In this document: positions 53,579 through 64,000 of the stretch, piece after piece
Position numbering within the stretch: position 1 is the first letter of the stretch
Layout: each line of letters opens with the position of its first letter
The notes under the pieces: generated by a model
What the model was told of the DNA's origin: nothing
Databases searched by the model: none
Seen by the model: only the letters and a program-made list of their open reading frames with translations
Translations under genes and position numbers: made by a program
Source: an uncultured Bifidobacterium sp.
GTDB lineage: Bacteria > Bacteroidota > Bacteroidia > UKL13-3
Direction of reading: 5' to 3'
DNA length: 64,000 nucleotides
Assembly (NCBI GenBank): GCA_964442045.1
Contig: CAYTWI010000004.1
Span: 2,273-66,272 of the forward strand

Positions 53579-53653
53579 TGGTAGCCCGTAGGGGAGTCGA
53601 ACCCCTCTTTAATGGATGAAAACCATTTGTCCTAACCGATAGACGAACGGGCC
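53579..53653 (-). tRNA. tRNA-Glu (anticodon UUC), CCA encoded
   Basis: The reverse complement reads GGCCCGTTCGTCTATCGGTTAGGACAAATGGTTTTCATCCATTAAAGAGGGGTTCGACTCCCCTACGGGCTACCA. It has a 7-bp acceptor stem, a TTC anticodon in the loop TTTTCAT, and a GGTTCGA(CT)CC T-arm. Confidence 0.85.
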
Positions 53654-54673: not shown

Positions 54674-54796
54674 CCATTGTTGGTATTCTTCACCAACAAG
54701 CTTATGCCAGCGGTTTCCTTCCATTTACTGCCCGTGGTTGGTGTCCTCACCAACCATAAGTTGAACGATTGGTGAGGACACCAACCATGGACAAAG
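54674..54796. repeat. Copy A of the nested-palindrome repeat family (hairpin CATTGTTGGTATTCTTCACCAACAAG + 36-nt spacer + GGTTGGTGTCCTCACCAACC-N15-GGTGAGGACACCAACC)
   Basis: Near-identical to copy B (58234-58356) over about 75 nt, and contains two independent long inverted repeats. Track ORF 54610-54858 (-) is an in-repeat translation. Confidence 0.6.
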
Positions 54797-57849: not shown

Positions 57850-57864
57850 TGATTTTTGATGTAT

Positions 57865-57894
57865 GATTTATGAAATAATAAGTATGTTTGAATT
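57865..57894 (+). promoter_or_regulatory. Conserved promoter-like module GATTTATGAAATAATAAGTATGTTTGAATT (Bacteroidota -7 box TAnnTTTG = TATGTTTG)
   Basis: The same module recurs at 61266-61304 and 62141-62179, and partially at 60678-60692. TATGTTTG matches the published Bacteroidetes sigma-A -7 consensus. The start codon lies 6-15 nt downstream. Confidence 0.4.
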
Positions 57895-57899
57895 TACCT

Positions 57900-58196
57900 A
57901 TGGCAACTATACTTATATTAATCTTTGCAATAGCTGCATTTGTAATTAAAACGTTGGATTTTGAAGTGGGTCGTCAGAATAGACGTGATTATTACAGAAA
58001 CGACTATCTTAAATCCGATGCATGGCAACGAAAGCGTTACGTAGTAATGAAAAGAGATAACTGGCGCTGCGTATATTGTGGTGCTCGCGCTACACAGGTT
58101 CATCATAAGAGATATGCTAAAAGAAATATTGGTAAGGAACCTATTGATTGGCTTGTTTCTGTATGCAAACCTTGTCATGATGCTCAACATAATTAA
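57900..58196 (+). CDS. Small HNH endonuclease (YajD-like) with N-terminal TM helix
   Basis: 98 aa. MATILILIFAIAAFVIK (TM) is followed by …RDNWRCVYCGARATQVHHKRY…SVCKPCHDAQHN, an HNH motif with its Cys/His zinc-finger pairs. Confidence 0.65.
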   Translation: MATILILIFAIAAFVIKTLDFEVGRQNRRDYYRNDYLKSDAWQRKRYVVMKRDNWRCVYCGARATQVHHKRYAKRNIGKEPIDWLVSVCKPCHDAQHN

Positions 58197-58624: not shown

Positions 58625-59710
58625 ATGGATAACATCATTGCAATTTATACCCGTTCGGGGTATCCTTCTTCAAATGTTACAAAATACATTTCAGACTACG
58701 CAGGTACTCCTGTTAATACGTTAATTATAAGTGGACCGAATGGTTACAATGGAGGTATTGTATACAACGATCCCCCATATCCCATGTTTAACTCAAGCGG
58801 TGATTATACCGGTGATGCAAATTGGGCATCCAGTTTAACCCAACTGAAAAATAACACGAACATTACCAATATATTCTTCTCTATCGGGAACAGTGCAATC
58901 AGTGCGCTGGCCGCAATGGATTCGAGTAATTTGAACAATGTATTGGTAAGCCTGAAGAATAGTGGAATTACCGGTGTTGATATTGATGCCGAAAATTGGG
59001 GTCAAGCTGGTGGCTTGGACCCAATGGATCCTGCAGTTCAAAAGGTTACACTTGCAGTTATTCAAGTTGGTTTAGCGCTAACAGCTGCCCCGTATAATAA
59101 TGTTTCCGGTTGGCAGTCATGGCAAACCTTTGTGAATAACAATGGTGGAAACATTTCATGGTTTAATGTACAATGTTATGCAGGTGGTCAATATAATGAC
59201 CCCGTTCAGGATTGGTACACTCAGTTTACACCATCAGTTCCTATTGTGGCAGGATTTGAGGCCACTAATTCAGGATCAGATGGAGGACAATTGACTCCAA
59301 CGCAAGCACTGCAACAGTTACAATCATGGCAAAGTGAATTGCCTCAAAACAGCCTTGCCGGAGCATTCGTTTGGGAATTTAGCCTTATTCTTGACGGAGG
59401 AAACACAGTATCAGCTTATGCAACTGCCATGAACGAAGGCTTGAATACGTACTATGCAACTTACACCTTAACTCCCGGAGGAGCATTAGTTCCTGATGCG
59501 ATTCGTGTTGCCTCAAATTTAAACGTAAACATCTATATCAATAATAGCCAGACAGATTCTGTTATTGGGCAGTTTGCAGGAACTCCAGAAGTAACCTGTC
59601 CTGCCGGAAATACTACGTTATTATACTCCATGAATGGCGGCAACTTGGGATTGATTGACTATATCAATGTCACTTCTCTTGGTTTGTCATCGTCTCTGAT
59701 TTGGGAGTAA
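58625..59710 (+). CDS. GH18-like (chitinase-fold) protein with degenerate catalytic motif
   Basis: 361 aa. …NSGITGVDIDAENW… resembles the GH18 DxxDxDxE box (here TGVDIDAE, with the first Asp replaced). Gly/Asn/Ser-rich. Confidence 0.45.
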   Translation: MDNIIAIYTRSGYPSSNVTKYISDYAGTPVNTLIISGPNGYNGGIVYNDPPYPMFNSSGDYTGDANWASSLTQLKNNTNITNIFFSIGNSAISALAAMDSSNLNNVLVSLKNSGITGVDIDAENWGQAGGLDPMDPAVQKVTLAVIQVGLALTAAPYNNVSGWQSWQTFVNNNGGNISWFNVQCYAGGQYNDPVQDWYTQFTPSVPIVAGFEATNSGSDGGQLTPTQALQQLQSWQSELPQNSLAGAFVWEFSLILDGGNTVSAYATAMNEGLNTYYATYTLTPGGALVPDAIRVASNLNVNIYINNSQTDSVIGQFAGTPEVTCPAGNTTLLYSMNGGNLGLIDYINVTSLGLSSSLIWE

Positions 59711-60742: not shown

Positions 60743-61195
60743 ATGACTATACTAAAAGTAAATACAGACGACCATGAGATTTTGACTAACATCACCAAAA
60801 AGTCGAAAGCCTATTGGGGATACACGCAAGAGCAAATAGACGCGTGGTCGGAGTTATTGACTATTGCTAAAAACTATATTGAAACCCACCAGGTATTTAA
60901 ATTAGTCATTAACAATACTACTATTGCTTATTATGCTTACTGCTATTTGGATAATGATACCGTTAAGCTTGACAACCTGTTTGTACTGCCTGAATATATT
61001 GGCAGTGGCTTTGGCAAACTACTGATGCATGATTTTATTGATACGATAAAAAAGACTGAAACAAAAAAAATAGTATTGGATTCGGAACCCAATGCCCAAG
61101 CCTTTTATGAAAAGTTTGGTTTCATCAAAGTAGGGCAATTGAAAACAAGCATTAAAGACCGGTACTTACCCATTATGGAGCTAACAGTAATATAA
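60743..61195 (+). CDS. GNAT family N-acetyltransferase
   Basis: 150 aa with …LFVLPEYIGSGFGKLLMHDFID… (motif A, Q/R-x-x-G-x-G/A) and …AFYEKFGF…. Confidence 0.7.
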   Translation: MTILKVNTDDHEILTNITKKSKAYWGYTQEQIDAWSELLTIAKNYIETHQVFKLVINNTTIAYYAYCYLDNDTVKLDNLFVLPEYIGSGFGKLLMHDFIDTIKKTETKKIVLDSEPNAQAFYEKFGFIKVGQLKTSIKDRYLPIMELTVI

Positions 61196-62068: not shown

Positions 62069-62087
62069 CTACAAACAAAAACATATT

Positions 62088-62179
62088 TCATGCCCTTATC
62101 AGTGCGCTTCACCAATAAGTTATAGCCATTGAGCTACATAATGATTTTACATTTATAAAATAATAAGTATGTTTGGATG
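62088..62179. repeat. Copy F: degenerate hairpin (CCCTTATCAGTGCGCTTCACCAATAAG) + AGCCATTGAGCTACATAATGATTTTACATTTATAAAATAATAAGTATGTTTGGATG
   Basis: Paralogous to copy E. Its hairpin is eroded. Confidence 0.5.
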
Positions 62180-62193
62180 CATTCATTGCAACA

Positions 62194-62949
62194 ATGTATA
62201 ACGACTTTGAATATAAACTGGTTAAACCTGATCAATCGCTGGCCGACTTTGTAGAAAGTTTCTGGTTGTTACATAACCATTCAAACCAGGCCAAAGACAT
62301 TGTTGTGTTACCGGATGGAAGGGTTGATTTGTTTTTCTCTCAATCAGCCACAGAACCTTTTCATGTTACCTTATCAGGTTTGGAAACGCAGGCCGACCAG
62401 GCAACACTGGCAGGCAATACCATTATGTTTGCCATTAGCTTTAAGCTGCTTGCCATTGAATATATTCTACACAATACCGTTTCCGACTTACTGAATAATG
62501 CCATCCATTTACCCGGTGGTTTCTGGAACTTTGAGGCAAACGATTTGCATAACTTTGAGCTGTTTTGTAAAAAGGCTACACACAAAATTCAATCGCTGTT
62601 ACCTGATGAATTAGATAACCGCAAACGGAAACTGTTTGACCTGTTGTATGGATCAAACGGAACCATGACAGTGAATGAACTATCGGAAAAAGTAGCTTGG
62701 AGCAGCAGGCAGATAAACCGCTACTTTAACCGGCAGTTTGGTGTTTCGTTAAAAGTATATTGTAATATACTTCGTTTCCGTGCTTCGTTTCAGCACATTA
62801 AAGAGGGCAAGCTGTTTCCGCAGCAAAACTTTGCCGACCAATCGCACTTTATAAAAGAAGTTAAAAAGCTATCAGGCGTATCGCCCAAAGAATTGAAGCA
62901 AAATAAAAACGACCGATTTATACAATTTTCAACCTTGAAGCCCCAATAA
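62194..62949 (+). CDS. AraC-family transcriptional regulator
   Basis: The C-terminus …MTVNELSEKVAWSSRQINRYFNRQFGVSLKVYCNILRFRASFQHI…QSHFIKEVKKLSGVSPKE… is an AraC double HTH. The track ORF starts at TTG 62173. Confidence 0.75.
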   Translation: MYNDFEYKLVKPDQSLADFVESFWLLHNHSNQAKDIVVLPDGRVDLFFSQSATEPFHVTLSGLETQADQATLAGNTIMFAISFKLLAIEYILHNTVSDLLNNAIHLPGGFWNFEANDLHNFELFCKKATHKIQSLLPDELDNRKRKLFDLLYGSNGTMTVNELSEKVAWSSRQINRYFNRQFGVSLKVYCNILRFRASFQHIKEGKLFPQQNFADQSHFIKEVKKLSGVSPKELKQNKNDRFIQFSTLKPQ

Positions 62950-62976
62950 TTTTGTGCCGTTAAATAACAATACGGA

Positions 62977-64000
62977 ATGAAATTACAACATAAACAAATA
63001 GCCATAGTGGGCGGTGGCCCGGGCGGATTAACATTAGCCAGACTTTTACAATTAAAGGGAGCCAGCGTAAAAGTATACGAAAGAGATTTAAATAAAAATG
63101 CCCGGGTGCAAGGCTCTCCGCTCGATTTGCATGATGAGTCGGGACTGGCAGCCATTACCGAGGCAAACCTGTTGGATGCATTTAAAAACAACTACATGCC
63201 CGGAGCCGACAGGGAGAAAATAATGAATGAACAGGCTGAAGTTTTTTTCAGCAGCCATGATACCAAGTCGGCCGACAACTTTGGGCATGCTCATTTTCGC
63301 CCTGAAATAGACCGCGGTGTTTTAAGAAAAATATTACTGGAATCATTACAACCTGAAACCGTGGTGTGGGATAGTCATTTTATAGCTATGGATAAACAAA
63401 ACGATGGTTGGTTATTACACTTTAAAAACAAAAACGATGTATATGCTGATATAGTAATTGCTGCTGATGGTGCCAACTCCAAAATACGTCCGTACCTTAC
63501 AGACATCAAGCCATTTTATTCGGGCATACTAATGCTGGAAGGCAATATATATGATGCCAAAAACGCAGCACCCCATATTACTTCATTGCTTAATGGCGGA
63601 AAAATTATGGCCTTCGGCAATGAAAAAGATATACTCATGGGCCAGAAAGGCAATGGTGAAATAGGCTTTTACATAAGCTTTAAGGCGGAAGAAAACTGGG
63701 CTGGTAAAAGCGGCTTAGACTTTAATGATAAAACACAGGTGCTTAACTGGTTTAAACAAACCTATAGCGAGTGGAGCCCCATTTGGCATGAGCTGTTTGA
63801 AAATACAGCCACCCCATTTATACCAAGGCCTATTTATTGTATGCCCTTAGACCAAACCTGGCAAGCCCAACCTAACCTCACCATGATTGGCGATGCGGCC
63901 CATGTAATGCCTCCCTTTGCTGGTGAAGGGGTAAACATGGCTATGCTTGATGCATTGGAATTAAGCAGGTGTTTAACGGCTGATGATAATAGTACTTTAC
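62977..64000 (+). CDS. FAD-dependent monooxygenase of the TetX / tetracycline-destructase family (3'-truncated by window end)
   Basis: [37 protein letters not shown]… (Rossmann GxGxxG) and …[31 protein letters not shown]… closely parallel the TetX motifs, as recalled from memory: …[29 protein letters not shown]… and …[27 protein letters not shown]… It is not in the ORF track because it is open-ended. Confidence 0.65.
   Translation, partial: [341 protein letters not shown]

Follow-up and report, generated by a model that had tools for sequence, protein, structure and literature searches.

Does the flavoenzyme gene at the end of this stretch of DNA encode a tetracycline destructase? The stretch (hereafter the window: 64,000 nucleotides (nt) of contig CAYTWI010000004.1, assigned to the Bacteroidota) breaks off inside an open reading frame (ORF) that an initial, sequence-only reading had taken for a candidate TetX-like destructase next to an AraC regulator, in a setting reminiscent of resistance loci, or else for an unrelated class A flavin monooxygenase. 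The observation behind that reading was confirmed and the kinship with the Tet(X) lineage was supported, but the interpretation as a destructase in a resistance locus was not. The gene is most probably not a tetracycline resistance gene. We consider it likely that the AraC gene and the monooxygenase gene together form an inducible accessory single-enzyme module, in which an AraC sensor is paired with a Tet(X)-fold monooxygenase that would modify a small molecule, probably not tetracycline.

The ORF opens with an ATG at 62977 and runs without a stop codon to the window end at 64000 (341 codons). The sequence beyond 64000 was obtained as a protein, P0362 (386 residues), which is identical to the window ORF at all 341 residues and adds 45 more. 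P0362 comes from a 73,499-bp NCBI contig that also encodes the exact AraC and triose-phosphate isomerase proteins of the window. The one other contig with an exact copy of the AraC protein measures 2.3 kb and stops within the gene. The stop codon of the monooxygenase gene is therefore expected at about 64135-64137, beyond the window. The visible part of the gene contains the following features.

62977-64000, + strand: gene for a Tet(X)-like class A monooxygenase dependent on flavin adenine dinucleotide (FAD), codons 1-341 of 386, as supported by Pfam, PDB sequence matches, P0362 and an AlphaFold2 (AF2) model
63010-63027, + strand: GxGxxG dinucleotide-binding motif, G12-G17 (GGGPGG), of the FAD domain (Rossmann), read from the translation and invariant in 28 clade members
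63466-63471, + strand: DG motif of class A monooxygenases, D164-G165, in invariant alignment columns
63532-63678, + strand: substrate-domain stretch with pocket residues, from a gap-free HMMER alignment to Tet(X6), MAFFT mapping and 120 clade members
63889-63927, + strand: GD motif and FAD/substrate loop, G305-E317, with E317 in place of Tet(X) Q322, from the alignments

The GxGxxG, DG and GD motifs (the last at G305-D306) thus lie in a single polypeptide, and Pfam FAD_binding_3 (PF01494) matched it with an E value of 5e-17 (62.5 bits against a cutoff of 22), as expected of a class A (group A) flavoprotein monooxygenase. The GxGxxG motif is the counterpart of the destructase-invariant G13/G18 in Tet(X7) numbering, and G165 corresponds to the conserved G159 of Tet(X7). 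Residues 301-324 align gap-free with the corresponding segment of Tet(X), and both the Rossmann N-terminus and the GVN segment singled out by the sequence-only reading are indeed common to the two.

How close is the protein to Tet(X)? Its best sequence matches in the PDB were Tet(X6) (2e-69), Tet(X7) (8e-66), and Tet(X4) and TetX2 (both about 4e-65), followed by SmTetX (8aq8, 4e-52) and AbsH3 (6n04, 2e-51). Identity was 37-39% to the plasmid-borne Tet(X3)/X4/X5/X6 proteins, hence not below 30%, and 36-39% to the functional variants TetHMM01 and TetHMM23 of Blake et al. We modelled the fold with AF2 on P0001, a homologue 93% identical to the window protein (28 homologues; predicted local distance difference test (pLDDT) 86.2, predicted template modelling (pTM) score 0.86). 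In Foldseek this model matched Tet(X6), Tet(X4) and TetX2 with template modelling (TM) scores of 0.86-0.91 and a root-mean-square deviation of 2.6 Å, and AbsH3 and SmTetX with about 0.8 (AbsH3 0.79-0.84). The predicted fold is therefore Tet(X)-like. Against the solved Tet(X)-Tet(X15) family (PDB 2xdo, 7epv, 6wg9, 8er0), the likeness extends to length (386 residues versus 378-388), to the FAD-binding motifs, to the GDAAHxMPPFAGxGVN loop and to an origin in Bacteroidota. The suggestion of an unrelated class A enzyme therefore goes too far: the protein is distinct from Tet(X) but related to it.

Tet(X) enzymes being the closest characterised relatives in both sequence and fold, one possibility is that this is a genuine though divergent member of the tetracycline destructases, a proto-resistance gene on the chromosome whose product hydroxylates tetracyclines and which these drugs induce through the AraC protein. 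Family-level comparisons do not favour it. The NCBIfam Tet(X) model NF033111, which served as a proxy for the hidden Markov models (HMMs) of Blake et al., has a curated cutoff of 750 bits; the 341-residue fragment scored 243.6 bits and full-length P0001 253.6 bits, about one third of the cutoff. As P0001 also lies far below 750 bits, truncation is not the cause of the low score. The thresholds of Blake et al. themselves are at least 792 bits for the type 1 HMM and at least 455 bits for the combined HMM (PMC10944477). Likewise, identities of 36-39% fall short of the level seen among type 1 destructases, where described Tet(X) variants share at least 67% (PMC8069840) and functional enzymes have a median pairwise identity of 91% (PMC10944477). 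Similarity to the type 2 soil destructases Tet(47)-Tet(56) was too low to place the protein among them (Tet(55) 2e-5, Tet(51) 6e-5), and Tet(56) matched the P0001 model with a TM score of 0.63-0.68 at 16-17% identity. In a neighbour-joining tree the window clade was monophyletic, with YPX003 as its sister, YPX004 as the next branch and the Tet(X) clade apart. We conclude from these comparisons that the window protein is a true Tet(X) relative, in a distinct group that neighbours the Tet(X) destructases but lies outside them, and that this group is an uncharacterised set of orthologues present in many Bacteroidota lineages.

The substrate pocket sets the clade apart more sharply. M186, E188, K209, L220, G230 and Y232 stand where Tet(X) has N190, Q192, R213, F224, H234 and G236 (N190M, Q192E, R213K, F224L, H234G and G236Y), and there are two additional substitutions, Q322E and F382L, in Tet(X) numbering. 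Within the Tet(X) contact set N/Q190, Q192, R213, F224, H234, G236 and S238, whose roles are taken from PMC10327574 and PMC13228020, S238 is the sole residue retained. The Tet(X) pocket residues M215, S238, P318, F319, G321 and M375 are kept, M215 and S238 being M211 and S234 of the window protein, and the hydrophobic wall of the pocket is preserved as M211, P313, F314 and M370. Across 120 clade members these substitutions hardly vary, and thus the clade has a conserved pocket of its own rather than a decaying one. Position 234 by itself is not decisive, since the functional variant TetHMM23 carries Y there. Taken together, the replacement of the residues that hydrogen-bond the A ring and a Tyr where Tet(X) needs a Gly make tetracyclines an unlikely substrate.

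Retention of destructase-invariant positions is more favourable to a destructase, though it does not discriminate. We used the 27 of 31 positions that are named in the text of PMC10944477, invariant across 114 functional destructases. The window clade retains 23 of the 27, including the FAD-pocket residues D51 and E104, which were reported to be destructase-specific (PMC10944477). D109, E149 and Q312 are changed, and Y343 is F in P0001 and Y in 90% of the clade. However, YPX003 (RZJ50364.1) and YPX004 (WP_172335899.1), among the 50 HMM-selected candidates that Blake et al. (2024) screened for tetracycline resistance in Escherichia coli, were both scored 'N', non-functional (PMC10944477, Supplementary Data 1), yet they retain 24 of the 27 positions and also differ at D109, E149 and Q312. 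The invariant positions are therefore necessary but not sufficient. In the second round of that screen there was a single exception, which lay beside the type 2 clade. YPX003 (386 residues) is the nearest tested relative, 61% identical to the window fragment and 59% to P0362, and shares E192, K213, Y236 and E322 with the window clade; elsewhere in the pocket it departs from that clade, with I at 190, S at 224, D at 234 and G at 238. For YPX004 the identity is 48-49%.

SmTetX of Stenotrophomonas maltophilia (PDB 8aq8) offers a second comparison. It is a competent flavin monooxygenase that neither binds nor degrades tetracyclines and confers no resistance (Beech et al. 2026, PMC13228020), and its loss of tetracycline recognition was attributed to changes in the A-ring site (PMC13228020; PMC10327574). 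It has the Tet(X) fold and a diverged pocket, in which Q192E and G236Y are common to SmTetX and the window clade. SmTetX differs from the window protein in its proteobacterial host and in sequence (31-32% identity), and an AraC partner is not mentioned in its structure paper.

With the family-level distance, the six replaced contact residues, two of them blamed in SmTetX, and the two non-functional relatives with the same invariant positions, a divergent tetracycline destructase appears quite improbable to us, even though the pocket residues listed above are kept and the module is, as set out below, inducible by design and horizontally mobile. It also matters here that no plasmid copy above 60% identity was found: Tet(X3-X6) occur on PLSDB plasmids, whereas the window clade is chromosomal and paired with an AraC gene.

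What, then, does the gene belong with? The AraC gene that the sequence-only reading had seen next to it lies directly upstream on the same strand.

62194-62949, + strand: gene for an AraC-family regulator, 251 residues, with an N-terminal beta-rich DUF6597 domain and a C-terminal DNA-binding domain of two helix-turn-helix (HTH) motifs, as supported by Pfam, an AF2 model and homologue lengths

The gap between the two genes is 27 bp. Pfam matched DUF6597 at 48 bits (cutoff 27) and HTH_18 with E 2e-7 (31.6 bits, slightly below the cutoff of 33.6), and AraC homologues bear PF12833 in precomputed annotation. In the AF2 model (pLDDT 88) the C-terminal half superposed on AraC DNA-binding domains with TM scores (TMt) of 0.67-0.75, and the best full-length structural matches were ToxT and Rns, each with probability 1.0. 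ToxT and Rns are AraC regulators that bind small hydrophobic ligands; like the modelled protein, they combine a beta-rich effector domain at the N-terminus with a double HTH at the C-terminus, but they are only 10-16% identical to it, with a whole-chain TM score of about 0.4, and the N-terminal domain of the window protein is DUF6597. We regard the likeness as a resemblance between a model and known structures that assigns no ligand. No mention of DUF6597 was found in the searchable literature.

Does the pairing hold beyond this genome? A locus scan with one genome per species returned 40 loci, or 41 including the metagenomic locus L001, from Flavobacterium, Chryseobacterium, Pedobacter, Ferruginibacter, Niabella, Chitinophaga, Cyclobacteriaceae, Robertkochia and others. 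An AraC homologue, 50-88% identical, lay directly upstream of the monooxygenase gene on the same strand in 37 of the 41 loci, and the taxonomic spread of the AraC family is that of the monooxygenase. When all ORFs of the loci were clustered, the next commonest neighbour was present in 8 loci at most, and none of the window's own neighbour genes recurred at related loci. As only the AraC gene is conserved beside the monooxygenase gene, the functional unit comprises two genes. We found no paper in the searchable literature on an AraC-linked Tet(X) homologue in Bacteroidota.

The AraC homologues are mostly 251 residues long, and thus ATG 62194 is likely the true start. The ORF as delimited mechanically starts at TTG 62173, which falls within a putative -7 box at 62168-62175. 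Gene callers give 258 residues for the window protein and its closest relatives, a start that is probably miscalled.

Some loci depart from the common arrangement. Matches to the monooxygenase gene are split between two frames in L038, L039 and L041, and in L041 so are those to the AraC gene; frameshifted pseudogenes or assembly errors may be the cause. On a 137-kb plasmid of Spirosoma oryzicola (NZ_CP089545.1; L043, 2932-5164), a 58%-identical monooxygenase is accompanied by a different AraC protein, which has 323 residues, is divergently transcribed and is without DUF6597. Judging by this pairing, Tet(X)-like enzymes may have acquired a regulator of the AraC type on more than one occasion.

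The junction between the two genes carries conserved DNA that would account for expression of the enzyme.

62947-62954, + strand: TAATTTTG, which fits the TAnnTTTG consensus of the Bacteroidota sigma-A -7 box, from the sequence and the junction alignment
62909-62929, + strand: ACGACCGATTTATACAATTTT, a near-invariant block in the 3' end of the AraC gene, from the junction alignment, proposed as a promoter/operator element
62142-62175, + strand: module C, a promoter-like repeat upstream of the AraC gene, present in three window copies; it holds TATGTTTG (62168-62175), which matches the -7 box and precedes ATG 62194 by 18 nt

The TAnnTTTG consensus spans positions -12 to -5, counted from the transcription start (PMC9723704). 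In the window, TAATTTTG overlaps the AraC stop codon TAA and is separated from the monooxygenase ATG by 22 nt, which would place the transcription start near 62959 and give a leader of 18 nt. In the junction alignment a TAnnTTTG box, or a close variant, embeds the AraC stop codon in 36 of the 42 sequences; the distance from box to ATG is 7-28 nt (mostly 16-25) in 31 of them and about 60 nt in five Flavobacterium loci. The upstream block has the consensus ACGACCGATTT(A/T)TACAATTTT and is nearly invariant, third codon positions included. Each related locus has one copy at a fixed position, and the window has a single copy. No second copy, a possible sign of autoregulation, was found upstream of the AraC gene in the window or the loci.

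One locus provides a natural test. In L005 (Flavobacteriaceae bacterium PS02293, 5336-5981) a gene for a 173-residue hexapeptide-repeat transferase (Pfam Hexapep) stands between the AraC and monooxygenase genes. Block and box occur twice there, once in the AraC tail, before the inserted gene, and once as a non-coding copy directly before the monooxygenase gene. We take the retention of the block as non-coding DNA as evidence that it acts in cis. The inserted gene seems to have come under a promoter of this type. The block is most simply seen as a site of promoter recognition or activation, and we infer that the AraC protein binds there.

The pair also travels as a unit. Between Chryseobacterium aahli (Flavobacteriia) and Pedobacter agri (Sphingobacteriia) the DNA is 84.1% identical over 2,040 bp, a stretch that begins 72 nt ahead of the AraC start and ends 16 nt past the monooxygenase stop, and the flanks are unrelated.

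L013 5142-7177 (C. aahli) versus L030 5148-7181 (P. agri): the shared AraC-monooxygenase pair

At the protein level, P. agri versus other Pedobacter and C. aahli versus C. gilvum gave 64-67% identity. In many further pairs DNA similarity was confined to the same 1.97-2.04 kb, and the clade tree was discordant with taxonomy. From similarity limited to the pair and the discordance between tree and taxonomy we conclude that the pair has been exchanged as a unit, and the alignments show that these 2 kb have moved between bacterial classes. Neither a promoter and probable operator within a regulator's coding tail nor transfer of this exact 2-kb pair was found described in the searchable literature.

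Composition of the window copy is in line with this. As the sequence-only reading had noticed, GC content of the monooxygenase ORF (0.425) is above that of its neighbours. It is the highest-GC stretch of the window (mean 0.367, standard deviation 0.029), and 1.4% of 1-kb windows reach 0.425. GC at third codon positions is 0.41 in the ORF, 0.43 in the AraC gene and mostly 0.27-0.40 in other genes. Both values fit transfer, for which they are weak evidence when taken alone. Spread on plasmids was considered and rejected: among 72,556 PLSDB plasmids no copy exceeded 60% identity, the best match being the Spirosoma oryzicola plasmid at 58%.

How would such a module work? We propose that the DUF6597-AraC protein is the presumed sensor and activator, combining a beta-rich effector domain with a DNA-binding domain of the AraC type, and that the monooxygenase would be transcribed from its own sigma-A promoter, with the -7 box on the regulator's stop codon and the upstream element in its last codons. 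The product would be a single-component, FAD-bound enzyme with the Tet(X) fold, dependent on reduced nicotinamide adenine dinucleotide or its phosphate (NAD(P)H). Once induced, it would pass through a C4a-hydroperoxyflavin and add a hydroxyl group to an activated carbon in a small substrate of aromatic or enolic character, using FAD, NAD(P)H and O2 on one conserved class of small molecule. We propose this chemistry by analogy with the established mechanism of class A flavoprotein monooxygenases and of Tet(X), which hydroxylates C11a via C4a-hydroperoxyflavin (PMC13228020). The pair would then be an accessory, horizontally exchanged 2-kb unit, a behaviour expected of an enzyme that is induced to detoxify or modify a foreign compound.

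A flavoprotein of this fold might instead be a reductase or another non-oxygenating redox enzyme, which is how the depositors describe AbsH3 ('FAD dependent reductase'), the third-closest solved family. AbsH3, from the abyssomicin pathway, belongs to the same class A flavoenzyme subfamily by sequence and fold, but is encoded in an actinomycete biosynthetic cluster, and no biosynthetic genes flank the window gene. The window protein is closer to Tet(X) (36-39%) than to AbsH3 (31-32%) and retains all class A monooxygenase motifs together with the residues essential for Tet(X7) activity; we regard a non-oxygenating enzyme as highly unlikely.

Several points weigh against an inducible module that acts on something other than tetracycline. 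YPX003 is a sister at 59-61% identity that stands outside the exact clade, with four pocket positions that differ, and the neighbour-joining tree that places it carries no bootstrap support. Negatives in E. coli may be false negatives, as Blake et al. point out (PMC10944477). Tet(X) is the closest characterised enzyme and the destructase-specific residues on the FAD side are kept, so weak or promiscuous tetracycline activity may be possible. Control of the monooxygenase by the AraC protein is read from adjacency and conserved DNA. The conserved block encodes the AraC C-terminal tail (KNKNDRFIQF), such that protein constraint may explain part of its conservation, and its non-coding copy was found at one locus only (L005). 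Finally, among the matches listed, identity of the monooxygenase declines about as does that of triose-phosphate isomerase in the same searches, which could fit a conserved physiological role.

In such a role the enzyme would be a hydroxylase of housekeeping or biosynthesis, serving for instance the metabolism of pigments, quinones or cofactors, and its dedicated regulator would be incidental. Conservation is indeed very high (76-82% across orders), the near-invariant pocket implies a single conserved substrate, and the relative AbsH3 is a biosynthetic tailoring enzyme. However, the regulator is the only conserved neighbour, with no biosynthetic or pathway gene kept beside the monooxygenase gene; the genomic context is different in every lineage; and scores against models of Ubi-type hydroxylases fall far short of the cutoffs. 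The clear transfer of the 2-kb pair alone between classes and the discord between tree and taxonomy are also hard to square with housekeeping, and we therefore judge this role unlikely.

The remaining features concern the surroundings of the pair in this genome. A modular intergenic repeat, always on the + strand, separates a run of same-strand genes between 54667 and 62195, in the order histidine kinase, HNH, 361-residue ORF, FMN_bind_2, GNAT, NAGPA, AraC and monooxygenase. The array is punctuated by repeats, as the sequence-only reading had it: six copies of the hairpin repeat lie between 54.67 and 62.13 kb, where none is expected by chance. Module A is a perfect hairpin with a 10-bp stem, CCCTTGTTGGTG-TTCTT-CACCAACAAG, at 54674, 58234, 59829, 60699 and 61218, with a degenerate copy at 62092; the intact copies had fold z scores of -5 to -8.6.

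62086-62134, + strand: degenerate copy of the hairpin repeat, the last visible one of the array, with a fold z score of -1.06, no better than shuffles

Module B, with copies at 54729, 58289 and 59860, forms a longer hairpin. Module C contains the promoter-like AATAATAAGTATGTTTG, with copies at 57857, 61267 and 62142, before the HNH, NAGPA and AraC genes. The repeat could be a terminator-plus-promoter element resembling a miniature inverted-repeat transposable element or a repetitive extragenic palindrome, or the punctuation of a cassette array. We rejected the hairpin as a feature of the module: the module A core is absent from all 41 related loci, and the repeat therefore belongs to this genome and not to the AraC-monooxygenase pair.

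The resemblance to a resistance locus, which had been drawn from the AraC regulator and a GNAT-containing mosaic region, was not supported. The GNAT ORF (60743-61195) was confirmed by Pfam; no resistance acetyltransferase family matched it above cutoff. A resistance island was rejected, as the GNAT, FMN_bind_2, NAGPA, HNH and 361-residue neighbours matched no resistance family above cutoff and none is syntenic elsewhere, while the AraC link is clade-wide across the sampled Bacteroidota. The stand-alone HNH endonuclease ORF (57888-58196, + strand, 102 residues), second unit of the array, weakly resembles the HNH portion of IscB, with 34 bits where the cutoff is 175. The 361-residue ORF (58625-59710, + strand) has the second-highest GC of the array (0.418) and had no Pfam or NCBIfam match. 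A transfer RNA (tRNA) gene at 53582-53653 (- strand) lies about 1 kb before the array start, with the triose-phosphate isomerase gene between; a tRNA was the only match in an Rfam scan of the window.

What does the pair mean for surveillance and for the family? As a resistance lead the gene is ordinary, one of thousands of Bacteroidota Tet(X)-like 'FAD-dependent oxidoreductases', whose sister has already proved negative. Pipelines that search for Tet(X)-like genes by similarity could nevertheless flag it, yet it lies outside Tet(X) by family model, identity and pocket; Beech et al. (2026) voiced the same concern over SmTetX (PMC13228020). Of modest interest are the conserved pairing of sensor and enzyme, the promoter in the regulator's coding tail, and a 2-kb pair that moves between classes. 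A more specific proposal, which we hold tentatively and rate as doubtful, is that the pair is a mobile, self-contained 'sense and inactivate' cassette against a natural antibiotic or toxin other than tetracycline, an outgroup to the branch that yielded Tet(X), with its promoter and operator in the regulator's last codons. If this were true, the 2-kb unit would bring all of its regulation with it wherever it lands. For the inducible module that we favour, the question is that of the native substrates of Tet(X)-like flavoenzymes, and a clade with a dedicated sensor and a compact promoter would offer a practical route to the inducer and, with it, to the likely substrate.

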